A stretch of DNA of 64,000 nt, taken from assembly GCA_964016885.1 (NCBI GenBank), contig OZ024740.1, forward strand, positions 178,560,001-178,624,000, given 5' to 3'. This DNA comes from Eledone cirrhosa. Its lineage: Eukaryota. A program made the translations under genes and the position numbers. Of the stretch, positions 1,724-39,525 are shown piece after piece (the stretch's first letter is position 1; each line of letters starts with the position of its first letter). The notes below the pieces were generated by a model. It searched no databases and was not told the origin of the DNA. It was given only the letters and a program-made list of their open reading frames with translations.

Positions 1724-4700
1724 TTATTGAAGAGCAGATTTATACACAACGTTTTTGGTTTTCCCGTCAGGAGCATACATAAATAGGCTGTCAGGATTAC
1801 CAACTCGAGAACAGCCAACGTAAAACTGACCATGTGAAAAGCAATGGGTTTGAAGATCCAGACAAACAACTTTGAGATTGGCCTTGAGATTTGTTTATGG
1901 TCATTGCAAAACTAGGCTTTTCATGGGAAATGGACAATCAGAGGGGGTAAAGGAAATTCATTTCGCCCGGGTCCTGTGATTATTTCTGCCTCAATTACAA
2001 GGTTCATCAGTTGCTTTACCACCAGCCTTGTTGCATTACAAAGAAAGAGGGGGGGGGGGGGGGGTGTAAATTACGTAGCAGGATAACAGGAGCTCCAACT
2101 TTTAGATACAACTCGTGAGGAGGTAGTCCTGGAGGATCCTGAGAGTTAAGAAACTCTGTTGGGAAGTTGGTCACTTGATCAAAGTCTGTAACAATGTCAA
2201 CTGACTTGTAACAGCGTTGAATAGAGGGCAACTGACCAACTATTTTGTGATTGATCAGCTTAACAGCAGCATTTGTAGGTGCAAGAATAGCCCTCTCACA
2301 AAGCCAATCAGTTGAAAGATTTGGATAAACTGAAGAACATAAGTCATCGGGCGTTGAAACTGAGCGGCCAATGCTAGAAGTATCAATGTATCCATTGTTG
2401 TCGGACTCAAGTTGACCATCTCCGATTTGGAGGAGTTGAGTGGAAAATGGCGTAGACGGACAACCAGTTTGTAATAGCGATCGCATATTAATTGTTAGTT
2501 TTTGTACCTCAACAAACTGCCAAAAAGAGGACTTTTTTAAGCAGGCATCCACTTCATCAGCAGGTGATCCATTTGGTACCACCGGAATTGTCTGTCTGAA
2601 GTCACCTGCGAGAAGAAGAGTGGCTCCTCCAAATATATTGTCATTAGATCTAAGATCTTTCATTGTGGCATCTAGTGCCTGAAGAGTGCCTTTATGGGAC
2701 ATGGTTGCCTCATCCCACACAATTAGTTTACAGCTTTTCAACAGAGCAGCTTCGTCAGAACTATGTGAGATATTGCAGATGACATTCTCTTGATGGACGA
2801 CGTTCAGTGGCAGCTTGAAGGTCGAGTGTGCTGTGCGCCACCTTCTAAAAGAGTCGCAGCTTTACCTGAAGAGGCAACAGCAAGTGTAATGTCGCCATTC
2901 TGCCTTACCTTGGCAAGAATAAGATTAAGCAGAAATGTTTTACCGGTCCCTCCAGGTGCATCTATGAAGATAATCCCGCCAGTATTGCTGTATACCTTGT
3001 TTATAACGGATTTGTATGCAGATTCTTGATCTGGATTAAGGAGAGACTCGTTGACAGCTACGTATTGTCGAAGGATGGTTTTGTCGTAGCTGGTTTCTCT
3101 AAGGAGGAGTCGATTAAAAGTTTGCTCTTGGTTTGTATCCGGAGAAGGGAAGCAGCATGCCTCCAAACATTGACCTCCAATTGCCACAACTAAGTCCTCC
3201 AAGATAATTAGACCAGCGTTATACATAGAGGGGGTAAAAGCAGTGGTGGAATTTTCGGTAGTATGACAGGTTTGAAGCCATATATCGTGGCACATGTGGT
3301 CCCTGTATTTATTCCACAACAAAGGTGAGTTAACAAAGTTGCAGAAAACCAGAATAATGGCGAATAGATGCCGAAGCTTTGAGGGAGATCGACGGAGAGA
3401 CGCTTCCTCAAGTATACTCTCATAATGGTTGTCCGTATCGATGAGTCCCCGTTTAAAGCAGGCGTCCTTGAATGTCTTGCATAATTGACCATCCACTCTG
3501 TGAAGGGCTGCAAAGGATGTTGGTCCACGTACAACGTGAAGCAGCAGCCGAAGATGGAAGCATTCGAAGTTCAAAGGATGAAGAGTATAGACGCGTCCTA
3601 TTGTGTCACTTTCAAAAATGGCAGGATCTGAATCGATATGTCGGCCCTGTTTTCTTCTTTGCCATAAGAAAGTTGAGTGGTTCCAAGAATAATAATGAGA
3701 AACATCAACATACAGTAGACTTTTTGCGTATGAGTCAACCGTACAGAGTTCGAAAAATGCAGTCAAAGTTGACCTACGCGGGGCAAGAACTTGTTGACGT
3801 AAGATTTCTTCAGTGAAGTAAACTCTCTGCTTGTCCTCTAAGTGAACACTGAGATGTTGAACAAAGGGGAATCGCTCGTGTATAGAGAAACGAAACATTC
3901 TCCAAACGGCCTCATTGGTTGAGATATAACGCCCTATTTGAAACAGTTCTACCTCATCTGTTGATGCAGCTGTTGTTCCTGTTTGTGCCACTTGAAAGAC
4001 GGATCTATCGGATCCCTTATTGACGTATTTGCAAACGTAACGTATAGATTTAACTGAGTTACAATATTCAACGTTAATGCGTATTAAATGTCTTGCATAG
4101 CATCTTGTTATGTGGAACAACCCATTTGTTATCAATTGTAAATTCTCGGTTAGATCCATGTTTGATTGTTGCTGTGAAACCTCCATGTCCAGGAGCTCTT
4201 CTGCGATATAATGGGTAACCGTGGTTACCTGTGATCGTCTCAGCCAAAATCTTTCCTGGATATTTCTTAGTGCATTTTCTGTTTGCCATGCATGAATACG
4301 TAGAATTAAAGTGCCGACATGGCCCATGAACCATATTTTTTCGAATGATTTCGTACAACTGGGGGTCTTCATTGGGATTTGGAAATTCTGCACTTATGAC
4401 TGTGTCCACGTCAGAGGGTCGAAGTTTGCTTTGTAGCCAGAGTAAGATGTGGGCGTGAGGTAGACCACGATTTTGCCATTCAACAGAATACATAAAACAT
4501 TTGATCGGCCCGAAAATGTCACCACATTTAAACAAATCAATCATTTTACGAACTTTAAGATGAAAAACGCGAGCAGTGATGTTTCAGAAGCTATCGCAGC
4601 AGTCCGATAAGCACAATCGGAAGCCTGGCGACGTATGCGTTATTCAGGTGTCTCCGCAGCTCTCGAGGCACCAGTCGCGGCAGCATTGCGTTTTCTTCGA

Positions 4701-5023
4701 GTTGCACGCTGTTCAGGTGTCTCCGCAGCTCTTGAAGAAGCAGTCGCGGCAACATTCAGCACTAACCGAATAGTACGTTCCGCTGTAGACTCATTTGATC
4801 GTGAAGCAGCAGTGGTTTGTGCATTTTTTGCTATACGGGCCGCAAGCTTTTCTACTGAGTATCGATGTGATGAATGCGAAGTATTGAGACTTGCGTTGTA
4901 GGCAGCTAATGTCGATAACCTAGTTGTCCTCTGCTCCTCAGTTTCATTAGCTCGACGCTGCTTTTCCTTAACCACACCCATCGACAATCTGCTGAGGCAA
5001 CTTCTTTTTTTTCCACGAGGCAT
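1724..5023 (-). pseudogene. RepHel pseudogene (STPR-like repeats, HUH Rep, PIF1-family helicase)
   Basis: MPRGKKR start; RAAETPEQRATR repeats; Rep motif 2 VEWQNRGLPHAHILLW; motif 3 RYVCKYVNKG; Walker A DAPGGTGKT; Walker B IVWDEATM; GDFRQTIPV; FAMTINKSQGQ; KTKNVVY then stop at 1724. Several frameshifts. Confidence 0.93.
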
Positions 5024-6797
5024 CGAAACGGAATGTGTAAAGTAGACACGATATAACACAATCGAATGTATAAATAAAGATTAATTGTAAAATGTATTTG
5101 AAGTACATGTAGCGGTAGAACGTTCGAAATGTACAGTGTATGTAAGTTAATAACTAACTTATATGTCAGAAATGTCGTCTAATCAATGCGAAAAAATAGA
5201 ATAATTCTAAGTCTCTGATGTATAAACCAAACTTTAGATAAATTTAAGCATAATATTGTAAAAGTTATGACACCACTTAATGTATGAACATCAAGCTTGA
5301 AGCGATAACAAATCTATAACTTAACTTAGTAATCTGTTAGAAATTGCTGGTTGTGAAATATACAAAATGATAGTGGTAGTCTCTTTGTTTCAAGTACAAA
5401 GAGTAAATTAAAATCCGTTTGAGCCGAATTACGAAAGATAACTCTTGATTACGAAAGATAACTCTTGTCTTACTTAATCACGAAAATTCACACAAATAAC
5501 CGAAACATTTTTAATGTCTCCAAAGGCCCCAATATCGATTTTTTAACATGTACAGGTTTTGTGCAAGGAGAAGCTCTGTAAAAAATCTCAAAGAAATCGC
5601 ATGAATGGTTTAGAATATATGAGCCCTCATTAAAAAAAATTGTCCACTCACACATACACATACATACAGAAACAAACTACAGATATATATATATATATAC
5701 ATATACACACAGAAACAAACTACAGATTTATATATATACAGATATATATATATATATACTCCACTACCTTAAGTTCTGCTTCAGTGTGTATATTTTTCCC
5801 GTTATTTTATTTTATTTTATTTCTTATCTTTATTTTATTATATACTAGCAGTAAAGCCCGGCGTTTCTCGGGGCTGCTCAGTAGTTGTGTTAAAGTTACA
5901 ATGTTAAGTTCCTTTCTAGGCTTAAAAACTGTAGAGTCTACTGTGTAGACTTTCATGTGGTACTTTTGATTAATATTCCCTCAACCAACAGTATGCCTTA
6001 TGAAGTTAAGAAAACATAACCATAACCCGAATGTTAAAACAAAAGAGGATGCTGGGGATAAAAACTGCACTGGTAATCTATTAACAAAAATCGAAAATGT
6101 AAACACTGCAACACATGTCTCAGAGACAAACATCAGCGTAACCAAACTATCAGTTATTTTGAAACAAAAAAATTGGATGGACATGAAAAACAAAAGAAAA
6201 ATGCGTTAAGCCAAGTCGAGGGGCAGGCAGCATCAAGGAGGTTCGCACCTGTGATAAAAAATATTGACGATGTAATAGCATAGATGTTTAAGTATAAACT
6301 ATGAAGAGCTCATAACATACCCATGGTGAGATTATAGACAGCCATAGCATGCGAAATGGACAGCTGCAGCAAAAGCCATATTCACCAAAAAATCGCTGAA
6401 ATCAACAAAATAGAAATGCTGCTTCCATTGCATCTTCACATGCAATTGAGAATGATGACGAAAGTTTACTTCGACGCACCAGAAATGGTGTTGTTGCGTG
6501 TTGTCTAGGTCGGAATGCATATTGAAACAATGAAAGAAATGACGGGAACAATATTTGTATGTATGCACCAAGTTGTGTGTGTCTATGTATTAAACGCTGG
6601 ACTTGTCAGTAACTGGAGGGGCGTCCTTAACAATCGACAGCATCGATTTCAGAGTCTGTTTTGATTTGCGAGCAATTCTGGTCCTTAGAGGCCTAGGTGT
6701 CAATAGAATGCATTGCATCGATGTTGAATACAGGTTTCTTTGAAGCTATATATTTAAGGCAGTCGGTGTAACATTGTCGCTTTGAACCCAAAAAACC

Positions 6798-9700
6798 CTA
6801 TAATACCTCACGGTATACAATATTCTTTGTTTTTCCGTTTGGAGCAAAAGCAAAGAGGTTGTTCCGGCTGCCAACTTGAGAACATCCAACGTAGAATTGT
6901 CTATGTGAAAAACATGGCTCCTCCAGGTGAAGTCCTGCCACAGATAAAGTCTGACCCTGGGACTTGTTGATGGACATAGCAAAGGCAGCACGAAGGGGAA
7001 ATTTGGTTCTTTTAAAAGAATAGGGTGCATCCACTCCTGATGTAGTAAGAGTTACCGTAGGTATTAAAACATCTTCTTTTCCACACCCCGACATAATCGT
7101 AGCATAAATAATGTGCTGTGACATCCTATTGACAACAAGGCGTGTACCATTGCAAAGCTTCGGAGGGGTTATATTCCTGAGAAGTATAACTGCACATCCT
7201 TCCTTGAGAGACAAAATATGTTGAGGTAGACCGGGAATATCCAATGAATTGAGGAATTCAATGGGATAATTGACCGCATCATGTGGATCAACATTGGTAT
7301 CAATAGACTTAAAAGTCTTATCATTTTCAGGAAGACTTTCAAGCATTTGGCGATTAATGGCGGAGACAGTGACATTTGTAGGAGCTAATATAGCCCTCTC
7401 ACACAGCCACGTATGATTGCGGTAATTATCTGCCAAGTTGGGAAAAACTGCTGCCTTGAGATCTTCGACAGTGTTAACCAGACAGCATATATTGTCGAGT
7501 GCAATGTCTCCATGCACATCTGAAGGTACTTTGCCGTCGCCAAGAATGAGAAGGTCTTCAGCAAATTTTTCAGACACAGTATCGCCAGGCAGTTGAACAC
7601 GCATGTTAGTGGTCAGACGAAGTGTTGTTCCCTGTTGCCACAATGGAGAAAACTTCAGGCAGGCCCGAACTTGATCCGCTCTGGTGCCCTTTGGAATAAC
7701 CGGCAAAGTTTGTCTAAAGTCCCCTGAAAGCAAAAGAGTTTCACCCCCCCCCCATGGTCTTCTGACGATCTCTAATGTCTTTCAATGTTCTATCTAAGGC
7801 CTCAATAGCTCCTTTGTGAGCCATGGTGCATTCATTCCACACAATCAGTTGGGACCTTCGTAGCAGTTCTGCTCTTGGACTATCCTTGGTGATGTCACAG
7901 AGCGGTGTTTCAGCTGATACCAAGTTAAGTGGAAACTTAAAGGTATTCTGCCTCCAGGAAGTAGTGTTGCTGCAATACCGGATGATGCAACGGCTATTGC
8001 AATAACTTCATTCTGTCTAACTTTGGCAAGAAGAAGTTCAGTAACAAAGGTTTTTCCAGTGCCTCCAGGGGCATCGAGACAGAAGATACCACCCCATCGA
8101 TGAAATACATAGTCGGTGATAGTTTTGTATGCAAATTGCTGATCCGGAAGTAGTTTTGGTTCCATTTCAAACACATATCTATCTAGAGTGTCGGCATCAT
8201 AAGATGTTTCTTGGATGATGAGAGTTGGAATTTTATTATTATTAGAATCAGTGCGGTGGGTTTGTGGCAGTCCGTATGCTGGCAAGGCATTCCCATCCAT
8301 AAGGAAAATCCTGTCCTCTATGTCTATAAGCCCTTTATTGTATAAATCATCACTGAAATCTAAATCTACTTCTATGTCAAGAAGTAGTAGTTGAGCCTGG
8401 CGCAGGAAGTCCTCAGACAGTCGGTTCAGAAACTTCAACCATAATGTGTAGGGATCACCAATGTTACATAAGATAAGAAACTTTGCAAAGAGCTCTCGTA
8501 GGCTTCCAGCTGAGTGTGATGAAGCGATCTCCGCCAAAGTTGCATTCTATCGAGAGTCAGCTTCAAGCATTCCACGAGCCAAACAGGCATCTCTGTATGT
8601 AGACCAAACACGATTACCGTTCTGAGGTCCTGAAACCTGGTCGGTCCTTTGACCTCATGCAGTAGCATTCGAAGATAGAAGCACTCGTGTTGATTTGGAG
8701 GAATCGTATACACTCGTCCCAAGCAATTAGTGAATTTGATCCCGGGAACTCCAATAACTGGTTGGTCAGTCTTTCTGTTCTCCATGTTTTTTTTATTCCA
8801 TGTGTAGTATGATGGCACCTGAGAATACAGCAATGATTTTGCGAAGTCATCGTATTCGCACAGTTTAAAAAATCCAGTTAAAGTTGTCTCCTTGGGGTCT
8901 GTGTCAATTCAGCGGCATTTTTCTTGGTATAGTACATCCATTGACCGTGTTCTAGGTGTACATCTAATTTTACAATTGAAGGGTGCCTATCATGTATTGG
9001 AAATCCGAAGATTCGCCAAAAGGCTTCGCTACTACTTATGTAGCGCCCTACTTGGAATTGCGTTAATTCGTCTCTATTGTTTTCGTTGAGTATACCGAAC
9101 GAAGCAGCGTCAGCACCCTTATTAACATACTTACATATGTATTTGATGCACTTGACGGAGCTGCAGAATTCAACATTAATGTGTGCGTTGAAAGTACTGA
9201 GCAGGAGTGGGCAATAGGGAATGATCCATCGGTTGTCAACCTCGCAATTTTTAACCCTTGCCGTAAAACCCCCCTCTTCACATCGCCTACGTCTATATAA
9301 TGGGTAGCCATCATTGGCAGTCTGAGTATCGCGAATAAATTGACGAGTGCATCTTTTATTGCCTGTAACGCATTGTAAATCAGTTCTAAAGCCAGGCCCA
9401 CATGGACGATGCACCATATGTGCCCTAACTTTCATGTACTAGTCCTTGTCAGTGGAAGGATCCGGTAATTGTGCAGAGATAATCCTGTCAATGTCGTCAG
9501 GACTAACTTTTGTTGTCAGCCAAATAAGAATATGAGCATGGGGGAGGACCCTTTTTGCCATTCGTTTGTGTATATGTCACATTGAACTGGTCCGAAAAAT
9601 CTCACCTAATTTGATAAGATCCATAAGCTTAAGTAACTTAATACGGAATACTCTAGCCGCGAGATCATGTAGACCTGTGGCGTTCTGACAAAGAAGGAGT

Positions 9701-12005
9701 TCGCCCTCAATCTCCTTCCAATTGGGGTTGCAAGTAAATGTTATAAATAAGTCTGGCCTACCGTAATGTCTTACAATGGTCATGGCGTCCTTTCATGCAT
9801 ATATCGAGGGCTTCCCGTGAAGGTAGATGGCAGAATGCATACTTTTCCAAGACTCTCAGGATACGCATCATTGTTCATTCCATCACGAAGGTGTATGTAA
9901 CTGTCACAACGCAACTTTTTTTGATTGAGTTTGATAAAACACAATCTCTCAGATACCATTTTGCACTCATGTCAGTTGCATACTGGTTGAAAAGGTCTTT
10001 TGAGCGATGGAGGTGACTAAAACAGTCATCTCGGATCATGAATCGGAAGGCATAGAAGTCCTTGCATGAAACTGTTTTGGTAGAATGAACCTCTGAATTG
10101 GTAGATTTACATTGTGGAATGCCAAAATGGTATCCGTCCTCTCCATATACCAAAAGCAGCGGGTGTGTTTCACTGATCCGTTGAAGTCCGTGGTCGCGAT
10201 GCTTGATAATAATGTCACGTTTGTTGTGCTGATCAACAGTGAGAAGTATTGCAACCTCATTGAAAGAAGGTGAATTATAGCGGCCTGCATGTTATCCAGA
10301 TGGCCACTTGTCAGCATGAATGACGACATAGTAATTGTCCACGGAGCTGTTTCTAACGCGTATTTGAAGCTCTGAACGTAGCTGTTATGAGTATGAAGCA
10401 TGTCCTGAAGTTCAACACGGAGCTCCAGTCTAGTGTCAGAAGCAATTGAGTATTTGAGTACTTGTTGCTTGTGGACAGTAAATTGAGTTTTGAGTTTTTT
10501 CTTTTGGGAAGGCAAATGTATTTCGCCTTGTAGCTTGTTCAAGACAGTTGGGCATAAAGTAGACCTGAAGAAATTGGGGCTCTTTATAAGCTACAGGATC
10601 CAGCGATCCGATAAGATGATAAACCTGACCTTGAACTTTGAAAGTGGGCATAAATCCACCTTCATACTCATAACTCGATCCAAAAGATGTCATTTGGAAG
10701 GCACAATTGTAATGTCGAATATCTTGAAGGAAACCTCTTGAGAGTGAATGGGTGTTGTAAGAAGAAGCCTCAATGGCTGTGGTGGATCCCTAGGAGGGTG
10801 CAAGTTGACCTTACCATTAGAGCAGTACATTCCGGCTGGTTGACCCAGCCACTTTTTGGCTTTGCAAAACTGGCAAATTTCAGACATGCCGCCGATTTGA
10901 ATATGAGGGTGTGTAGCATAATTAATAGCGGAGACATAATTGAAAGCCTTCAATGACAATTGTGATTTCGCAGCCCTCGAAATACCCTGCGTATTGGTTT
11001 TATACTGCCCCCCCCCAGTCGAATAGTTAGGATAGCTGCTGTCTCTGCTTCTCGCGCAGCTGCAGTAGCTGCCGCGTCTCTGGTCTGACGAAGATCACGT
11101 TCAACATCATTTTCTTCATCTCGCGCAGCTGCCGTAGCAGCCGCGTCTCTGCTCTGACGAAGATCACGTTCAACATCATTCTCTGCAGTTCGCGCAACTG
11201 CCGTAGCAACCGCGTCTCTGCTCTGACGAAGATCACGTTCAACATCATTCTCTGCAGTTCGCGCAACTGCCGCAGGAGCCGCGTCTCTGCTCTGACGAAG
11301 ATCACGTTCAACATCATTCTCTGCAGTTCGCGCAACTGCCGCAGCAGCCGCGTCTCTGCTCTGACGAAGATCACGTTCAACATCATTCTCTGCAGTTCGC
11401 GCAACTGCCGCAGGAGCCGCGTCTCTGCTCTGACGAAGATCACGTTCAACATCATTCTCTGCAGTTCGCGCAACTGCCGTAGCAACCGCGTCTCTGCTCT
11501 GACGAAGATCACGTTCAACATCATTCTCTGCAGTTCGCGCAACTGCCGTAGCAGCCGTGTCTCTGCTCTGACGAAGATCACGTTCAACATCATTCTCTGC
11601 AGCTCGCGCAGCTGCCATTGCAGCCGCGTCTCTGCTCTGACGAAGTTTACGCTGAACATCATTCTCTGCAGCTCGCGCAGCTGCTTTTGCCTTTGCATTT
11701 CTTGCAAGCCGAGTTTGAGATTCCTCGTTATTCACTGCAGCATGTGAGGATGCAGTTGAAGAAGCATTTCTGGTGCGTCAAAGTAAACACTCGTCATCAT
11801 TCTCTGTTGTATGTGAAGATACAATGGAAGCAGAATTTCTGGCCCGTCGACTCAAGCAATGCTCATCGATAGACAGGGCTCTCGCATTCACTGAACACCC
11901 CACAATTTGAGGCTGTCTAATGCTCGACGACGCCTCAGTCAGCCTCATTCTTTTCGTTATCTGCGACCGCGTCAGTCGTAATAAGGGCATCTTCTTTTTA
12001 GGCAT
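6798..12005 (-). pseudogene. RepHel pseudogene (STPR-like array, Zn finger, HUH Rep, PIF1 helicase)
   Basis: MPKKKMP start; CQFCKAKKW..YCSNGKV; FKVQGQVYH; Rep motif 1 PDLFITFTCNPNW; motif 2 LPHAHIL; motif 3 KYICKYVNKG; DAPGGTGKT; GDFRQTLPV; FAMSINKSQGQTL; KTKNIVYREVL. Many frameshifts and stops. Confidence 0.95.
11040..11690 (-). repeat. 69-bp tandem array (about 9 units) encoding 23-aa STPR-like repeats
   Basis: GATCACGTTCAACATCATT recurs at 11093, 11162, 11231 and so on with period 69; translation (ENDVERDLRQSRDAAATAVARTA)n. Confidence 0.92.
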
Positions 12006-13973: not shown

Positions 13974-14011
13974 CCTTTTGAAAAGCAGAAGAACTGCGAA
14001 ACCGGTAAAGG
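13974..14011 (+). ncRNA. Minimal type I hammerhead ribozyme, U3-A8 core
   Basis: CCTT-TTGAAAA-GCAG(AAGAA)CTGC-GAAA-CCGG-TA-AAGG: all stems perfect, palindromic CCGG stem III, GUA triplet. Confidence 0.8.
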
Positions 14012-14234: not shown

Positions 14235-14311
<77 letters not shown>

Positions 14312-14348
14312 ATATAAGATAAAAAGATGGTTAAAATAGTTCCAAGTA

Positions 14349-14415
14349 TTTTATTATGCGCATTTCAAAAACAAATATCATCATGGGTTGATATCTGCGT
14401 TCTAATCAGATACAA
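14349..14415 (-). ncRNA. Type I hammerhead in the PLE1 pLTR (G8U mutated)
   Basis: Minus strand TTGTAT-CTGATTA-long stem II-GAAA-TGCGCA-TA-ATAAAA. Confidence 0.65.
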
Positions 14416-15376
14416 TAGGGATACATAATATGAAGCTTAAAAAACACTTGTGAATAGTGAAGTTTTAAAGCAACATATGAAAGATAAATTAAGATTGATG
14501 TATGAGATTGAGAAAAAGTCGGGGGGGGGGAGGTAAGGAAGAGATGAAAGTAAAGAATGTTGGGGGAGGAGTATAAGAGGGAAGGATGAGAGAGGAGGAG
14601 AAATGGGTGATAGAGAGAGAGATAGCCTTTACAACTGAGAAAAAAATATATATTGTCTCACAGAGAGAAATTAAAAAACCGTTGGAAGATAATAGATAAT
14701 TTAAAAGAAATTGAAATTAAAAGTTAATGAGGTTTATGCATGAAGAGAAAAAGGAATTAAGAATAATGTTAAATTATGGTTTGTATATTGAAGGGTTTAA
14801 AAATATGTGCGAGGAAAGAAATTATTAATATGTATTATTAAAATAAAAATAGTAATGTTATTAAGGATATATTGTGAAAAGAAGGAGAAGAATGAATTAG
14901 TTATGAATTTAGAGGAGTTAGTTAGGGTTTAAGTTTGTTTTTATGTATTGTAATATGTAAAAGTTAAACGAGCATGAAAGGATGGAGGAAATAAGGGAAA
15001 TTTAAGGAAGAAAAAATCTAACGTAAAAAAATTATGTTTACGAAAGACTTCTAATGGTAATACTATAATGTATTAAAACAATTATAATTGTTATGGCCAA
15101 TGATATGAGGAAAGATGGAAGAATGGATAAGGTTTTGGTGAGTAATAATAAGAATTGAGAAGTAGTTACGAAGAAAAGGTAGGGATTAGAGTTTAGAAAT
15201 TAAAAAGAAAAGAGGAAGAAAGGAGAATGATAAAGAGGAATGATATGGAATGAGTAAATTGTATTATATAATATATAATAAATAATATTGAAATAAGGTA
15301 GAAAGATAGGTATATTTGTAAACGATATATATAAGCCTTTGAGAAAAAGGATTTTAAACTAGTAAGTTATTAGATA

Positions 15377-16930
15377 TTAGCTGTATACTTTATGGAATGT
15401 TATGTGGAATTTATGCAAGCAGAGAGAAAATAAATCCGTGCGTCTATTTACTATAGAATTGAAATTAGATATAATGGTAAATTTCTCAGCTAGGCAAAGA
15501 TTACATGTTCTGCATAGGGAGGCATTCAAGTAGGGAACAAACTTTTCTCCAAGAAAAATTATAGTTAATATTTTTGTCTTTCAAGGACCATATGAGTTCC
15601 GAGGGTGCCGTGTTAGTTCTTTTAAGTTGCTATCTAAAAGACGAATTGTGATTATAAAATCTAGCTTTGAAGGAGGTGGAGGTGGAACCGAAATAGTTAA
15701 AGGAATTGGTATCAGTTATAACCTTACATTCATAGACTAAGCTTTTATCAAGACAATGGTTATTAAGAGGACATTTAGTTCTAACAGGGCAATTACAATC
15801 ACGATTAGAGAAATTAACGGAGTTATTAACAAGTGACCTAGTGTTATTTATAGGAGGAATTGGATTGGAGAAGTTATTTACGATAGGAATAATAGTTTCC
15901 TGATTTGATTGGTATTAAGAAAATTCAACGAAGTTACGTTTGACGTCGTATTTAAGTTTACAAAATCTAGCCTAGAGTTAACAATGACGTCGGGAGTATT
16001 ACTGCTATTATTATGACACTCAGTGTTGGAAGGATGTGATTTAATATTTAATATTTTATTGTTGTGTTTAGAGATAATGTTAGAGATGTTGGAATAGGTG
16101 GAATAAGAAAATGTTATTGTATGTTTGTTAAAGATTTTACTATATATATAAGTGAGGGACGGAAGCATTTATCTAAGGCCCTAAAGAATAGTTTAGGAAT
16201 ATTATTATTAATAGAAATAGAAAAAGGAGCATTATACCAGATTATATTTTTGTATCTAGATCTTTTATTTAAGTTATTGGAATGATCATAATTAATTATT
16301 TTACTGTAAGACCTTCTAGGATTGGGTTCTTTACTGTATTTAATTTTATCAGGATAACCGGCTTTAGAAAGCCCATTATTATAGTAATTGGCGTTAGCAT
16401 CGAAGATATTTTTTTATTAGAGGATAGGTTTGATATTCTTTTTCCAATATTACTGACTATAGCATTTTTAATGTTAGTGGGGTGGTTAGATTTAAAATTA
16501 ACATAATTTAGATTCTCATTGTTTTTATGGTAAGGGTAATATAGGCCAGTGTCAAGATTAAGGGATATATCCAAGAAGTTAGCTAGTTTGACGTTGTTAT
16601 CAAATTCAATTTTAAGGTTATGTTGTTTAAAGAGATCATGTATATTGTTCTTAATAATATTAAGGTTAACTAAGTTGAAATATAAGATAGTAAAAAGTCC
16701 ATCGTAACGATAAATTCCACCACGAAGTTGAGGAATTTTCTGATTTAAAGAATTCAAAATAAAAATACCAATCAAATCAGTCAATTACGATGTATCGGAA
16801 GCACCCATTGTGATATCAAATTTGTTGGAAGTATCGGTTCTTGTCCAGTATTCATTGTTGAATTCTAAGATGGTATTTCTTTCGGTGAGAATGATGTAAA
16901 GTTCATATGTGGTGATGTCAGAATATTTAA
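15377..16930 (-). pseudogene. PLE reverse transcriptase + GIY-YIG endonuclease remnant
   Basis: FDITMGASD, GIYRYDGL (YRDD motif), NFLDISLNL, SNHP, CPLNNHCLDKSLVYECKV..YFGSTSTSFKARFYNH, CNLCLAEK. Confidence 0.88.
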
Positions 16931-17515
16931 ATTTTTGTTTGTTTGCTCATTTTTAAACAAGCTATTACGTACACATATTACAATACATAAAAACAAACTT
17001 AAACTCCTCTAAATTCATAACTGATTCAATCTTCTCCTTCTTTTCACAATATATCCTTAATAATATTAATATTTTTATTTTAATAATACATATATAATTT
17101 CTTTTCCTCGCACATATTATTAAACCCTTCAATATACAAACCTTAATTTAATATTATTCTTAATTCCTTTTTCTCTTCATGCATAAACCTCATTAACTTT
17201 TAATTTCAAATTCTTTTAAATTATCTATTATCTTCCAACGGCTTTTTAATTTCTCTCTGTGAGACAATATCTATTTTTTTCTCAGTTGTAAAGGCTATCT
17301 CTCTCTCTCTATCACCCATCTCTCCTCCTCTCTCATCATTCCTTCTTATACTTCTCCCCCACCATTCTTTACTCTCATCTCTTCCTCTTCCTTACCTTTT
17401 CCAACCCCCTCACTTTTTCCCAATCTCATACATCAATCTTAATTTATTTTTCATATGTTGATTTAAAACTTCACTATTCACAAGTGTTTTTTAAGCGTCA
17501 TATCATGTATCACTA

Positions 17516-17582
17516 TTTTATCTGATGAGAACGCAGATATCATCCCATGATGATATTTGTTTTTGAAATGCGCATAATAAAA
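17516..17582 (+). ncRNA. Type I hammerhead in the inverted PLE1 pLTR
   Basis: TTTTAT-CTGATGA-GAACGCAGATATCATC(CCAT)GATGATATTTGTTTTT-GAAA-T(GCGC)A-TA-ATAAAA; canonical core and palindromic tetraloop. Confidence 0.85.
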
Positions 17583-17728
17583 CACTTGGAACTCTTTTAA
17601 CCATCATTTGATCTTATATTATTTATACTCCAGTCCTACACACTGTAGAGTGCTACTTATCCGATATTTGCATTGCTTTATTGTGATACAATAAAACTCA
17701 CCTCCTACATCATATATATATATATATA

Positions 17729-17914
<186 letters not shown>

Positions 17915-18037
17915 GGAGGTGAGTTTTATTGTAGTACAATAAAGCAATGCAGATATCGGATGAGAAGCACTCTACAGTTTGTAGGACTGGAGTATACATA
18001 ATATAAGATCAAAAGATGGTTAAAGGAGTTCCATGTA

Positions 18038-18104
18038 TTTTATTATGCGCATTTCAAAAACAAACATCATCATGCAATAATATTTGTGTTTTCATCAGAT
18101 AAAA
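18038..18104 (-). ncRNA. Type I hammerhead (PLE1 family)
   Basis: Minus strand TTTTAT-CTGATGA-stem II-GAAA-TGCGCA-TA-ATAAAA. Confidence 0.8.
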
Positions 18105-18192
18105 CAGGAGAACATGATATGAAGCCTAAAAAATATGTTGATTTAAAACTGCACTATCCACAAGTGTTTTTTAGCCTTCATATCATGTTCTG

Positions 18193-18259
18193 TTTTATCT
18201 GATGAAAACACAAATATTATTGCATGATGATGTTTGTTTTTGAAATGCGCATAATAAAA
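18193..18259 (+). ncRNA. Type I hammerhead (PLE1 family)
   Basis: TTTTAT-CTGATGA(18199-205)-stem II-GAAA(18242-45)-TGCGCA-TA-ATAAAA. Confidence 0.8.
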
Positions 18260-18291
18260 TACATGGAACTCCTTTAACCATCTTTTGATCT

Positions 18292-18468
<177 letters not shown>

Positions 18469-22818: not shown

Positions 22819-22971
22819 TTGGTGCTCTGAAATAGCCATATATATATGAATGTATATATAGTGTATTTTGCAATACACTTTATGCTTAATTAAAAGCATT
22901 TTGAAGACCGTATGCTATTGTTTTAGAGTAGTAACAGACTCACTTTAATTTCAGCAAACAGGGGGAGATAA

Positions 22972-23017
22972 AGCTGACAAGGCCTTGTTTCTGCATTTAT
23001 TGATGCTTATCAAAGCC
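22972..23017 (-). ncRNA. Type I hammerhead, U3-A8 core
   Basis: Minus strand GGCT-TTGATAA-GCAT(CAATAA)ATGC-A-GAAA-CAAGGCCTTG-TC-AGCT; palindromic stem III, GUC triplet, one extra A before GAAA. Confidence 0.7.
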
Positions 23018-23237
23018 AATAGCATACGGTCTTCAAAATGCTTTTAATTAAGCATAAAGTGTATTGCAAAATACACTATATATACATTCATATATATATG
23101 GCTATTTCAGAGCACCAATTCTAATTTCTTAATTTCTGCTTGACCGGCAACCGCTCTGTATAATCAGTTCCTGATTATTTACTAGAATTCTATAAGAACA
23201 TAACATCCGTAAATACAGCAGACGGGAGGGAGTAGTT

Positions 23238-23283
23238 GGGTTTGATAAGCATCAATAAATGCAGAAACAAGGCCTTGTCAGCT
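23238..23283 (+). ncRNA. Type I hammerhead, U3-A8 core
   Basis: Same as 22972-23017 but with one G.G mismatch in stem I. Confidence 0.62.
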
Positions 23284-23439
23284 TTATCTCCCCCTGTTTG
23301 CTGAGATTAAAGTAAGTGAGCCTGTCACTACTCTAAAACAATAGCATATGGTCTTCAAAATGCTTTTAATTAAGCATAAAGTGTATTGCAAAATACACTA
23401 TATATACATTCATATATATATATATATATATACATATAT

Positions 23440-23870
23440 ATAAAGAAATACACAGATACATGCGAATACATACATATACATGCATATACGCACATATATC
23501 CCTGAATTTGTGTGGTGCCAACCTTCTAGCCCTCCTTAGCCACCTCGTCTGTAGCCTAGATATTAATACCCCCCCCCCCCCACGTCATTCTGGTATTTTT
23601 CTCTTGGTTGTAAGAGGCTTAACTCTGTTTCTTGACCGCTGTATCACGTGATAAGATCCCCCTCCGCCTTTCCGGGTTCTCTCTCGCGCCTTGCAGACGT
23701 ATTTTGAAACATTAAATGAGGTATTCTCTTGATAAGTTGGCAAACCTCACAGAAATACTGCATCTCTATGATGTAATGTTTTTGCACGAAACCGGGCAGT
23801 CGAGAATGTAGAGGAATATTGGGTATTTATATTTTTTCATTTATATCTAATGTTTCTTCTTTCTTTATAA
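23440..23870 (+). mobile_element. pLTR/retrozyme-like unit of the 37032-37893 family
   Basis: Colinear, diverged similarity to 37032-37129 and 37560-37893; (TA)n flank. Confidence 0.75.
23723..23807 (+). ncRNA. Type I hammerhead, U3-A8 core, long stem II
   Basis: ATTCTC-TTGATAA-GTTGGCAAAC...GTTTTTGCAC-GAAA-C(CGGGCA)G-TC-GAGAAT. Confidence 0.7.
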
Positions 23871-23893
23871 TGTATATATACCCCCCCCCCCAT

Positions 23894-24224: not shown

Positions 24225-26230
24225 TAGGGAAGCAGAAAATTGCTTTTTGTGATCCAGTTCGTGTTTAAGAAAACCAGTTTCATGGATGGTTTCAACGTAC
24301 GGTAACGTATGAGTATAGCACTAAAACAGTTAACTTTCTAGACGCGACGCTTAACCTAAATACGGGACTTATAAGATCTTTTCACAAGATTAATGAAAAT
24401 TAGCATACATCAACTGTAACTCAAACCACCCACTATCCATAATTAAATCCATTCCACGCAGTATATCCCTTAGGATCTCCCGCCTCTCGTCTAACCGACA
24501 AATCTTCGAAGAACATGCAGAATACTACAATACCACATTAGACAAGGCAGGCCACTTAGATAGAGTAGAATATATAGATGAAAGCCTCCGTAAAGCGCAC
24601 ACGAACACGCATAACACAAACTCCAGAAACACACGCACACACGCACTTACGCATAGAACTACAAAGTATACGGTAAATAGAAATACAACATCGAAACCAA
24701 ACAAGTCACGCAGTAGAAAATATATTTGATATAACCCCATATTTAACACCTCTATTAGTACTAACCTACCCTCTACCTTCTTTAGAATAATAAATAAGCA
24801 CTTTCCAGATTCACATAGATACAGCAACATCCTTAAGATTAAATCTATTAGACTATCTTACTCCACGGCACCACATATAGAGGCACACATTAAGATGATT
24901 AACGCTAAAAAGATACATAACAACACAAGAACACACATTTTCAACAATAACAATACAATCACCATTGAACACAACAGAATATCTAATACATAACCATCCA
25001 CAAACAAAACGTAATACACCTGTACAGGCATCACAGCCCACCAATAATGCCAAAGTTGCCCATGAAAAGAATTGTAACTGCCACCTACCTGAAACCTGTC
25101 CATTACATAATGAATGAATGCAGTCTAATCTGGTTTACCAATGCACAGTGCAATCAGACAACCAGAAATGGTATTACATCGGAGCGACTGGGAATACATT
25201 TAAAGCCCGTTGGTATACACACCGTTACGCAATGAAACATTCCCAGCATCGTTATGTAACTACCCTTGCAAACAAGACCTGGCAACTGAGGGAAAGTAAC
25301 CATCAGTACACCCTGAAGTGGAAAAAATTATCGAACGCACAACCATATCGGGGTGGAATGAGAAGCTGTCGATTATACGACCTTGAGCTGTTCCACATCT
25401 TGAGTTCGAAGAATAAGTTACTCAACAGTAAAATCGAAAGATCAATTTATTGTAACCATAGACTCAAAGAGAAGTTTTTGCACTACAAGTGCAAATCGAA
25501 CCCTTAACCTCTTACTACCAACTGACAAACTGCATATACTTAGACTTTATACCCTCTTGTTGTATCTAAACCCTTTTAATTACCCACAAAAACCAATACC
25601 TATATACCCCCCTTCTCCTTCATTCCTCTTCTATTTCTTCGTTTTCTTCCTTCCTTCCCTCCCCTTTTTGGCTATCTTTTCTTTTCTTCTTTCTCCCCCT
25701 CTTCTTTGCTTTTATTTTTGTCATTATTATCTTTATCTTTATTTTTTATATATATATTTATCTCTTTATATCTCCCCCCTCCCCCTCTCTCTCTACCCCC
25801 CCCCCCACTATGATCAATTTAATTCTCTTTAACTCACTACATTCCACGACATGAAGACGACATATCAAAACTGATCAAGGAATCCTTCCACCTCTACCCC
25901 TCCCTCCATCTCAGTTTGTCACTCTACTTCCTACCTCTACCCCCTTCCCCTCTCTCTATACTATTCCGTTTGTCCCCTCACCTTCTGATTCCTCTTCCTC
26001 TCTCTCTATACTAGTAAATACAATTCCAAATGAATATTTTTCTCTATATATTAAGAACTATTTCAAGAGTAACTTACTCACTATTTTGAAAATTTGGACT
26101 GTGAATAACAATTATAATTGAGTGGCTGCTATTTGCAGTATAGCAATATAAGGTTGCACTTACAAATGAAATGGTCGTAAATACCTGGATAAATCCTTCT
26201 CTTAATGCTTACCTGTGTTTTCTCTTTTAT
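24225..26230 (+). mobile_element. Penelope-like element 2 (Neptune-like), 5'-truncated
   Basis: TVNFLDATLNLNTG, NSNHP, RISRLSSN, YNPIF; GIY-YIG domain; pyrimidine-rich 3' UTR; (TA)n flanks. Confidence 0.88.
24320..25507 (+). pseudogene. PLE RT thumb + GIY-YIG endonuclease remnant
   Basis: ORF 25118-25507: LVYQCTV..YYIGATGNTFKARWYTH..CRLYDLE..LN..CNH; frameshifts upstream. Confidence 0.87.
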
Positions 26231-26235
26231 ATCTA

Positions 26236-26269
<34 letters not shown>

Positions 26270-26272
<3 letters not shown>

Positions 26273-26460
26273 CGAAGGAAGTGTAGTAAGGAACTAGGTG
26301 GACCATAACGCACCAGAGTACTCAATGCTTAGGGTAGTAGAGTGGGTAATAGGAAAAAAGTTTAAAACCGCGACGGCAGAGCTCGAGCCGATTCAATGGC
26401 TATTTCTGGACGCCGTCGAAACGGCTCGAGCTCTGCCGTCGGGGTCTTGAACATTTTCCC
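26270..26460. repeat. pLTR-like fragment with fold-back and hammerhead 3' halves
   Basis: 26270-26410 is the reverse complement of 39323-39462; inverted repeat 26371-26400/26412-26441; GAAA-CGGC(loop)GCCG-TC-GGGG at 26418-26444. Confidence 0.7.
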
Positions 26461-27367: not shown

Positions 27368-27480
<113 letters not shown>

Positions 27481-27604
27481 AGATCAAAAGATGGTGTATA
27501 TCATGTATACTCCAGTCCTACAAACTGTAGAGTGCTTCTTATCCGATATCTGCATTGCTTTATTGTACTACAATAAAACTCACCTCCTACATATATATAT
27601 ATAT

Positions 27605-27950: not shown

Positions 27951-27989
27951 CTCTATATATATAAGGAAAAAAGATGAAATGATACAAAA

Positions 27990-29327
27990 TCTCCTGGCTC
28001 CTCTCCCAGGTCCTCAAGCCTCTACTCTCCACCATTCCCGGAAATGTTAGTAGCTCCGACGAAGTCATACGTAGACTACACCAACTCCAACCAGAACAAC
28101 TTAAACTAAATAGATACGCCTTAAGCCTCGACCTTGTCTTCCTCTACATTACAGTCCCCGCTCATCCAGATGTCGATTTATTGACGGACTGCGTGGTTGC
28201 AGAGGACATACACTGCTACGGCCTCCATCCGACGGACATATACCAGCTTTTGTCCTTCACAGTGGACAACACGTACTTCACCTTCCACCACCACACATAC
28301 AGACAGACAACAGGATTACCCATGGGATCCAGCCTATCGGGCCTGCTGGCCATCACCTATATGAACCAGCTAGAATGCCGAGCCCTCAACATCTGCACTT
28401 CCCATACCTTCTTCACCCGATATGTAGATGACATACTCATCCTTACATCATCCCGTGAGGAGGCTGATAAATATACACAACATTCTCCAGCATGGACGCC
28501 AGTATAAAGTTCAGCATGGAACACCCCAATGACCGCAGATCCTTATTCCTACTGGACTTCCAACTAAGGGTAACAGAGGAAGGCAACATCCACACCTGCT
28601 TCTATAAAAAAGCCGCCAGCAGGGACCTGTTTGTACATTTCAGATCCGCCCTCCCAGCCGGCGCTAAGTTCGGATACATAAGGAACGAACTAACACGTAT
28701 CCGGAACAAATGCACCGACGCTAGAGACTGAGACACACACACCACACATTTCCTGGAAGTACTCAAACTGAACGGATACCCGACATCCACCACGAACCGT
28801 GCCAGAAAGAACAGAGGACACCACACCCGAGGCACTAACACCTGCTTCCTGAAGCTCCCACACTTCAGTGAGGAAACAACAACAGCCATCCGCAGAGCTA
28901 TCAGACGAGAGGGACTAGATATCCAACTAGCTCACTCAGGACCTTCTCTACGCGGACGGCTAACCAAAAGACACTCCACCAGACATGACAGCCGCTGCAG
29001 GCTAGCCAACTGCCCCATCAACGACACAGACCCATGCCACCAGGCTTACGTCGTATACAGATTAGAATGCGACAAATGCAGCAATTTCTACGTAGGTAGC
29101 ACCACCAGACCACTTCACATAAGAATAAAAGAACACCTCAATACCAACGCTTCCTCATTTAAGAAACACCTAGTGAAATGCAAAAACACCGACAAAAACA
29201 TAACAGTTAGGATAGAAACTAAGGAAAGAAACCTCGGCATCTTAGAATTAAGGAAGCACTGATTATAGACAAAACGCAACCTCCAATCAATAATAGACTA
29301 GAACTGAACACCCAATTTATAACTTGA
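27990..29327 (+). pseudogene. PLE RT + GIY-YIG remnant
   Basis: SLDLVFLYITVP, GLPMGSSLSGLLA, TRYVDDIL, LLDF, FYKK, NGYP, LKLPH, VVYRLECDKCSNFYVGSTTRPLHIRIKEH, EAL..PPIN. Confidence 0.92.
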
Positions 29328-36979: not shown

Positions 36980-37036
<57 letters not shown>

Positions 37037-37270
37037 TTAGAAACACACAGATACATGCGGACACACACATATATACATGAATGCATCCGCACCCAACTGT
37101 GAGTTAAGGGTGCCAACTTCACCGATGTTGCTCAATGAATGACTGGGACAGACCAATTCAGTTTGAACCAGACTGAACCAGTATCAGAGTTAAAAATACA
37201 TTATGAAGAGAGAAGAAACATTTAGATATAATTAGTAATAAAATGTATCATACCTAAACTGTTCCTAAAT

Positions 37271-37358
37271 TCCTCGACTACGTAGTTTCGTGGCATAAAC
37301 AAAAACAATATATCAAAGATATAGAGTCCTTGCGAGGTCTGCCGACTTATCAAGAGGA
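37271..37358 (-). ncRNA. Type I hammerhead, U3-A8 core
   Basis: Exact reverse complement of 37735-37822. Confidence 0.75.
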
Positions 37359-37734
37359 TACCTCATTTTACTAACATCGGTGAAGTTGGCACCCTTAACT
37401 CACAGTTGGGTGCGGATGCATTCATGTATATATGTGTGTGTCCGCATGTATCTGTGTGTTTCTAAATGTATTAATAACTCCCTCTGGTCGAGCAATCTTT
37501 GAAGTGTGGGGACAACTGGAAAGCTTCCATTACTCATACTTCTCGCCTTCTTCACTACCTCTTCTGCGGCCTCGATATGAATACCCCCTCCGCCTCCGTG
37601 GTATTTTTTTCGTGGTTATAAGAGGCTTAGCTCTGTTTCTCGACCGTTATATCGCGTGACTATCTCCCCCTCCGCCTTTTGGGATTCTTTCTCACGTCGT
37701 GTAGACGCGTTCTTGAGACTAGTAAAATGAGGTA

Positions 37735-37822
37735 TCCTCTTGATAAGTCGGCAGACCTCGCAAGGACTCTATATCTTTGATATATTGTTTTTGTTTATGC
37801 CACGAAACTACGTAGTCGAGGA
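37735..37822 (+). ncRNA. Type I hammerhead, U3-A8 core, long stem II
   Basis: TCCTC-TTGATAA-GTCGGCAGAC...GTTTATGCCAC-GAAA-C(TACGTA)G-TC-GAGGA; palindromic CTACGTAG, GUC triplet. Confidence 0.78.
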
Positions 37823-37888
37823 ATTTAGGAACAGTTTAGGTATGATACATTTTATTACTAATTATATCTAAATGTTTCTTCTCTCTTC

Positions 37889-37936
<48 letters not shown>

Positions 37937-38971: not shown

Positions 38972-39027
38972 ACTGCCTGATGAGGTCATAGCCATTCAAT
39001 GGCTATCATCGAAATATATATAGCAGT
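38972..39027 (+). ncRNA. Type I hammerhead, canonical core
   Basis: ACTGC-CTGATGA-GGTCATAGCCAT(TCA)ATGGCTATCATC-GAAA-T(ATAT)A-TA-GCAGT. Confidence 0.85.
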
Positions 39028-39310: not shown

Positions 39311-39459
39311 CAATTCTAATTTAGTCCAGAAATAGCCGTCGAAACGGCTTGAGCTCTGCCGCCGGGGTCATACCTTTTCCTATTACCCACTCTATTACCC
39401 TAAGTATTGTCTACTCTGGTGCGTTATGGTCCATCTAGTTCCTTACCACAATTCCTTCG

Positions 39460-39462
<3 letters not shown>
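39310..39462 (+). repeat. pLTR-like fragment (26270-26460 family)
   Basis: Reverse complement of 26270-26410; carries only the hammerhead 3' half. Confidence 0.7.

Positions 39463-39525
<63 letters not shown>

Follow-up and report, generated by a model that had tools for sequence, protein, structure and literature searches.

A U3-A8 hammerhead motif carried by an ORF-poor 591-nt unit, likely a non-autonomous Penelope-like element

The locus at 37271-37822 raises the question whether a hammerhead core with U3-A8 is the norm of its family or the product of decay, and what kind of element carries it. It lies in a window of 64 kb (the whole stretch of DNA analysed, 64,000 nt), which consists of animal-like DNA with many microsatellites and broken mobile elements; a repeat near 42.5 kb hints that the host may be an octopod. 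Our reading, to which we assign a probability of roughly 0.6, is that U3-A8 is the family norm, that the ORF-poor 591-nt unit is likely a non-autonomous Penelope-like (retrozyme-like) element and that its RNA is predicted to be cleaved after C37817 as a dimer. Publications have described natural U3-A8 cores from 2011 onwards, and those of Penelope hammerheads from 2014; the value of the locus lies in the host element.

Hammerhead motifs of the window

A structural scan of both strands returned nine motif rows. Four are U3-A8 and cover three sites (Table 1), four are C3-G8 (17516, 18191, 18106-18036 and 38972), and the row at 13974 is a weak, chance-like match. The U3-A8 motifs have the type I core (Y3 U4 G5 A6 N7 R8 A9 / G12 A13 A14 / A15.1-U16.1 / H17 plus a 3-8 pair), of which U3-A8 is an accepted variant, in a three-helix layout with an open stem I (5-8 bp), a long stem II and a stem III of 2 bp. 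The U3-A8 hammerhead feature itself is confirmed. The short stem III with a palindromic loop, characteristic of the Penelope type, is present in the 37 kb copies and absent from the 23 kb copy, where the segment for helix III lacks self-complementarity. Both motifs at 37 kb sit in a 178-bp inverted repeat (99.4% identity in self-comparison) and are the two arms of one insertion, so the window contains only two independent copies.

The letters that the original prediction gave for these copies were correct. Stem I is TCCTC/GAGGA in the 37735 copy and TTCTC/GAGAA in the other (where stem I begins at 23724, one position after the predicted 23723), and pair 37736-37821 is C-G in one copy and T-A in the other, the compensatory change that had been proposed. 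Alignment places TTGATAA, GAAAC and GTC in both copies; loop III reads TACGTA (palindromic) in one and CGGGCA in the other. C37817 and C23801, named as cleavage positions, are each C17 of their copy.

Rfam gave no hammerhead at the gathering score in the 64-kb window, and none even at E ≤ 10 in 37472-37900; matches to mir-268, NEAT1_2 and FasX were far under the gathering score and were rejected. The C3-G8 motifs of the window were likewise missed, so long-stem variants of this sort fall outside the models. An ORF starting at an ATG ahead of stem I was dismissed as not conserved (17 versus 31 codons).

The window also holds a second hammerhead family, with C3-G8 (17516-17582 and 18191-18261 on the plus strand, 18106-18036 on the minus strand). 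It has a stem II region of ∼ 36 nt, the helix III palindrome ATGCGCAT and predicted cleavage after A; its carrier is a Penelope element of the Hydra type, whose tail measures about 85-90 nt. A decayed copy of this family near 14400-14470 (minus strand) has lost G8 through a single unpaired change at position 8. A third type, again C3-G8, has an AT-only palindromic helix III and is flanked by (TA)n (38972-39027, plus strand).

Table 1. Positions of the U3-A8 hammerhead copies, of the unit and of a neighbouring element in the window
Feature	Position	Strand	Details	Basis
Type I hammerhead motif, U3-A8 core	37735..37822	+	U3 37740, A8 37745, G12 37804, C17 37817; stem I 5 bp, stem II 57 nt, stem III 2 bp	structural scan, fold comparison
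10-nt palindrome	37807-37816	+	contains the 2-bp stem III of the 37735 hammerhead
Distal stem II, 8-bp helix	37760-67/37787-94	+		pairing probability 0.99
Distal stem II, 6-bp hairpin	37770-75/37779-84	+		pairing probability 0.99
Candidate pseudoknot, 5 bp	37728..37760	+	GAGGT 37729-33 / ACCTC 37755-59	invariance in two copies
Identical hammerhead	37271..37358	-	in the inverted arm of the same insertion as the 37735 copy	scan, self-comparison
Diverged hammerhead copy	23721..23809	+	U3 23729, A8 23734, C17 23801; stem I swap, loop III non-palindromic	scan, alignment
Forward arm, A-C-B	37373..37897	+		self-comparison
A	37373-37471	+	last 99 nt of the tail	self-comparison
C	37472-37719	+		self-comparison
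B	37720-37897	+	carries the hammerhead	self-comparison
A-C junction	37460..37485	+	tail end to unit start	self-comparison, contigs of other copies
Inverted arm	37031..37373	-	B plus 165-nt tail (37195-37031)	self-comparison
Older insertion, same family	23436..23875	+	74% identity, in (TA)n	self-comparison
Broken Penelope-like element	14304..17712		Hydra-clade CxCX5C linker, C3-G8 hammerheads, long stem II, two arms	context

The 591-nt unit and its insertions

Self-comparison gives the order at 37 kb as (TA)n, inverted arm (B and the 165-nt tail), forward arm (A, C and B) and (TA)n. The C, B and tail pieces close into a unit of 591 nt. The forward arm stops in (TA)n 76-80 nt past the cleavage site, the inverted arm in (TA)n 245 nt past it, and within the window AATGTAT stands at both unit ends, ahead of (TA)n or of the next piece. 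The link from B to the tail is known from the 37 kb locus alone. The A-C junction is crossed by contigs from other copies in runs X1 and X15: X15 record 9 covers 37415-37565, and G37468A, a base near the junction that differs from the window, is carried by 19 contigs of X1, as far as 24 nt from a contig end. No array of two complete head-to-tail units was seen; the end-to-start junction is present.

The older insertion begins with an inverted tail end (about 23436-23525), followed by a 5'-truncated forward arm that finishes at the same short end as the forward arm at 37 kb. Five two-arm insertions were compared (37 kb, 23 kb, 14-17.7 kb, 17.9-18.3 kb and 27.4-27.6 kb; the one at 22.8-23.4 kb was left out), and in all five one arm has the short end and the other the tail end. 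An inverted 5'-truncated arm, a one-sided tail and a microsatellite target, the marks of a Penelope-like insertion, are thus all found. The insertion left out of the comparison (22820-23421) is likewise two-armed, inverted and in (TA)n, with 186-bp arms at 95% identity and an 83-bp direct repeat; it adjoins the old U3-A8 copy, and the structural scan found no hammerhead in it.

The unit has no ORF for RT plus GIY-YIG, the longest circular stop-to-stop frames being 86 aa (+) and 71 aa (-). Its circular MFE is -169.8 versus -134.8 ± 7.1 for 40 shuffles (z -4.9), a predicted fold in line with the high self-pairing of retrozymes; the tail alone gives z -7.0, and the reverse complement of the unit, folded linearly, z -1.4. 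Of the pairs predicted for the circle beyond stem II, 102 can be aligned with the 23 kb copy, and 20 of these are broken there, so that the long-range helices survive only in part. The unit is best filed with elements of the non-autonomous Penelope-like or retrozyme kind.

Alternatively, the repeat might be no more than the pseudo-LTR at the 3' end of an autonomous Penelope-like element, its copies heavily 5'-truncated and its A-C junction a partial tandem. Penelope insertions are described as mostly 5'-truncated partial tandems (PMC8557442), the X1 depth is lower across the 5' part of C, and the loose ends listed are 10 of 98, so that a rare ORF-bearing parent may exist. However, A runs into C and C into B without any ORF, the A-C junction is crossed in other copies, and the loose ends listed at 37471 lead, among the 10 of 98 listed, only into (TA)n, on either side. 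We consider a pseudo-LTR origin improbable and retain the non-autonomous unit.

Broken Penelope-like ORFs occur at 15-17 kb, 24.3-25.5 kb, 28-29.3 kb and 30.2 kb. The CxCX5C linker was read by eye in the 15-17 kb and 25 kb ORFs, and the 30.2 kb frame resembles published Hydra RT sequences. Among six window ORF fragments searched with Pfam, only the 28-29 kb element gave RVT_1 and GIY-YIG, and the Hydra-type fragments gave no match. Two-arm insertions of the C3-G8 family are found at 14304-17712, 17910-18304 and about 27470-27592. The first of these is a candidate for the type of helper that the U3-A8 unit may use, a suggestion drawn solely from the (TA)n target and the layout; comparing the unit with six candidate helper UTR regions of the window (18 comparisons) gave no significant similarity (best p = 0.02).

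Other elements lie nearby. A broken Hydra-type Penelope ORF is located directly 3' of the 23 kb copy (24330-26230, plus strand); in its 3' UTR the scan accepted no motif, and similarity to the unit is not significant. A Penelope-like remnant of a different clade, with Pfam RVT_1 and GIY-YIG, occupies 27983-29262 (plus strand). A 182-bp piece common to 26230-26411 and 39324-39502 (88%) lies beside (TA)n and is possibly the tail of another Penelope family. Inspection of the ORF list by eye places two Helitron-like remnants (Rep/helicase) on the minus strand at 2016-11900; a 69-nt coding tandem repeat (10904-11891) lies in one of them.

Words of the unit occur in 20 runs under 17 organism labels; no RNA run is listed among those containing them, which carries no information on expression. 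Among the four runs mapped, only X1 has the unit at depth. X15 and X18 gave three and two contigs, respectively, at depth 2-5, and the raw reads of X22, whose organism label is shared with X9, gave five partial microsatellite-like reads in 1938 million letters. Horizontal transfer of the unit is not claimed, trace carry-over being equally likely, and summed contig depth (1e5-5e5) is no measure of copy number. The word matches under 17 labels (runs X4-X20) warn against deducing a host range from an index of this kind, the three mapped runs other than X1 having traces of the unit or none. Pattern scans picked out 9 loci in metagenome contigs and 119 in viral contigs; these were chance matches, none of the 128 having a BLAST match at E ≤ 0.01 or passing the fold filter.

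Folding and conservation of the hammerhead

Under unconstrained folding the short motif is no better than its shuffles (z -0.6 and -1.35). The hammerhead fold lies above the MFE by 5 kcal/mol in the 37 kb copy and by 11 kcal/mol in the 23 kb copy. Stem I has a local competitor, a GAGG/CCTC hairpin with a probability of 0.56. For a dimer of the helix III palindrome, a 10-bp duplex of -12.9 kcal/mol was computed.

An active fold above the MFE is consistent with a structure that is conserved without being cleaved in vivo, either as a binding structure for a helper protein or as a passive passenger. Precedents exist: Penelope hammerheads are weakly active in vitro (PMC4209133); catalytic mutants of the lizard element still insert, cleavage being dispensable for insertion in vitro, and none of its reads end at the cleavage site (PMC11167929); and of nine predicted Xenopus retrozyme dimers one was cleaved and eight were not (bioRxiv 10.64898/2026.07.22.740005). 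However, every catalytic letter of the core is retained here, as are the 3-8 pair and the palindrome of helix III, and a U3-A8 swap is reported to preserve activity (PMC3088659). We give a fold without cleavage an outside chance and continue to favour cleavage of a dimer.

ACCTC, left unpaired within stem II, could pair with GAGGT to form a pseudoknot (Table 1; duplex about -8 kcal/mol). The 37 and 23 kb copies show no two-sided change in it, and the retention of all pairs has p = 0.12. We tentatively regard the candidate pseudoknot as a possible tertiary contact, at rather less than even odds; the same letters could be explained by a local hairpin or by a role as splice donor. A long imperfect hairpin just past the cleavage site (37827-37879, plus strand) is poorly retained in the 23 kb copy; the segment resembles a small intron, with an AG/GTATGA donor, a pyrimidine tract and CAG in the tail.

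Conservation was assessed by aligning the copies without structure and comparing them with neutral simulations at the divergence of the flanks (65 of 247 aligned positions, ∼ 26%). The stem I swap had been put forward as the best internal evidence against decay, a rank it loses: alone it is within chance (p about 0.15), at least one two-sided change among the five stem I pairs arising in 15% of neutral simulations. A two-sided change with all five pairs kept arises in 3.3%. Better evidence comes from the invariance of the core, the swap in distal stem II and the lack of any variant at 4% or more at positions 3 and 8 in run X1. All 16 core and core-closing positions are invariant (p = 0.0076 by neutral simulation). 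Stem II had been said to differ, and in length it does (57 nt in the 37735 copy versus 52 nt in the 23 kb copy, where the 3' side is 7 nt shorter); it is not a simple difference, as all 13 alignable pairs of distal stem II (37760..37794) are kept, with one two-sided change (U-A to C-G) and five one-sided ones. Stems I, IIa and distal II are all kept with at least two two-sided changes at p = 0.001, for helices chosen post hoc.

From the public run X1, 1328 contigs were mapped on 37373-37910, and 497 of these match at 99% or more. Across 37735-37822, only two differences are listed at 4% or above, namely 2 nt inserted in the distal loop and A37782G. The latter, found at 11%, corresponds to the U-G intermediate in the swap of distal stem II and retains a wobble pair. 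Among the 1328 contigs no variant reaches 4% at position 3, at position 8 or in stem I, which makes U3-A8 the family consensus. Variants are not significantly depleted in the ribozyme in this run (1 of 96 versus 15 of 312 sites, Fisher p = 0.13), and because the family is young, invariance within X1 shows consensus, not selection. In one X18 contig (depth 2.7), A37819C disrupts a stem I pair.

These data bear out the original prediction that the U3-A8 cores are not decay. Selection in two subfamilies, also proposed, is plausible, its basis being one old copy; that copy, lacking the helix III palindrome and with a poor hammerhead fold, may have partly decayed after insertion. The idea that U3-A8 is a decayed C3-G8 core or a chance match, which has the chance-level stem I swap and the missing Rfam match on its side, is largely refuted and most improbable, since U3-A8 is common to both copies at 74% identity, C3 and G8 variants stay below 4% in X1, and real decay here looks otherwise, as in the 14 kb C3-G8 copy with its unpaired single change at position 8.

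Possible mechanism and relation to known systems

In the mechanism that we propose for a non-autonomous unit, the ribozyme strand would be transcribed as a multimer or circle. As a stem III of 2 bp would be too weak by itself, cleavage after C17 would need a dimer, held by the 10-nt palindrome, or a bound protein; it would release unit-length RNA, perhaps circularised. A (TA)n-targeting element, probably of the Hydra clade, would supply the RT/GIY-YIG protein, which would nick (TA)n and start reverse transcription from two AT-rich sites inside the unit, 76-80 and 245 nt past the cleavage site, and one priming per DNA strand would produce two outward-facing arms. The cleavage site is read through in both arms, and the A-C junction in the forward one, which points to an uncleaved multimer or a ligated circle as template; the present data fit either. 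Being short, young and free of protein genes, with two fixed priming ends and insertions that continue across the cleavage site and the unit junction, the unit makes the choice between these two templates testable. Priming on two strands at two sites is modelled on the lizard Penelope protein, which extends both strands from two internal RT starts that define the tail, and which assists cleavage by its hammerhead (Frangieh 2024, PMC11167929). A read-through transcript of the 37 kb locus would form a 178-bp hairpin burying the ribozyme, so this copy is likely inactive.

It seems unlikely to us, though worth stating, that the unit is a very abundant 591-nt circular-RNA retroelement with two-ended priming from two fixed internal sites and a Penelope-type U3-A8 hammerhead stabilised by a pseudoknot into an internal loop of the 57-nt stem II. 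If it were, its insertions would preserve in the genome the trace of reverse transcription that had run around a circle ligated by the ribozyme, and the element would be a small natural substrate for probing the role of the hammerhead in Penelope transposition, which two papers describe as unclear (PMC8557442, PMC11167929).

The literature searched, a scope outside which most subscription papers and Repbase fell, contained no publication on the 591-nt unit. Lunse et al. are said to have worked on Penelope hammerhead dimers, and long-stem or U3-A8 variants may already be shown there.

The closest counterparts of the motif are the Penelope hammerheads of Schistosoma mansoni (Cercyon), with U3-A8 and about 1,300 matches (Cervera and de la Pena 2014, PMC4209133). 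They share with ours the type I fold, a helix I of 4-5 bp, an enlarged helix II, G10.1-C11.1, a small palindromic helix III and opposite-strand copies 100-700 bp apart, and their activity is low. A short palindromic stem III is taken to imply cleavage as a dimer (PMC4209133; 2019 review PMC6765202), and the U3-A8 core is natural and, on activity data cited there, active (Perreault 2011, PMC3088659). Pseudoknots between stems I and II are predicted in about 40% of that set (PMC3088659). Base pairing between stems I and II is the candidate contact here as well; its partner would be an internal loop within the long stem II of a motif of the Penelope type, a candidate suggested by invariance in two copies.

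The insertions resemble those of the Hydra clade, which targets (TA)n and is defined by the CxCX5C linker (Craig et al. 2021, PMC8557442). An inverted arm and a one-sided tail are Penelope hallmarks, and the (TA)n target, a hammerhead near the 3' end, the inverted 5'-truncated arm and the tail at one end all recur in our unit; non-autonomous elements (Chlamys) are also described in that paper. However, all 26 Hydra-clade rows of its hammerhead table have C3-G8 and a short stem II, whereas the unit has U3-A8 and a 57-nt stem II (two spike-moss rows of the table have a loop 2 of about 30-35 nt). The tail is 165 nt here compared with 30-40 bp in the Hydra clade, and the unit is without an ORF or a detected sequence link to a helper (PMC8557442). 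The 57-nt stem II, the 165-nt tail and the candidate 5-bp pseudoknot are the less usual features.

Non-LTR retrozymes have been tied to Penelope pseudo-LTRs (Cervera 2020, PMC7229834; Li 2026, bioRxiv 10.64898/2026.07.22.740005). Like them, the unit is non-coding and, by prediction, highly self-paired, with one type I hammerhead and an end-to-start junction, and Penelope machinery is proposed for both (PMC7229834). Its 591 nt fall inside the retrozyme range of 51-972 bp (bioRxiv 10.64898/2026.07.22.740005) and exceed the 170-400 nt circles of the 2020 retrozymes (PMC7229834). Unlike the non-LTR retrozymes described there, it has a U3-A8 core and forms dispersed, two-arm inverted insertions in (TA)n, not tandem arrays (PMC7229834). 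The unit is intermediate between tandem retrozymes and Penelope insertions, which lends support to the proposed use of Penelope machinery by the retrozymes of animals.
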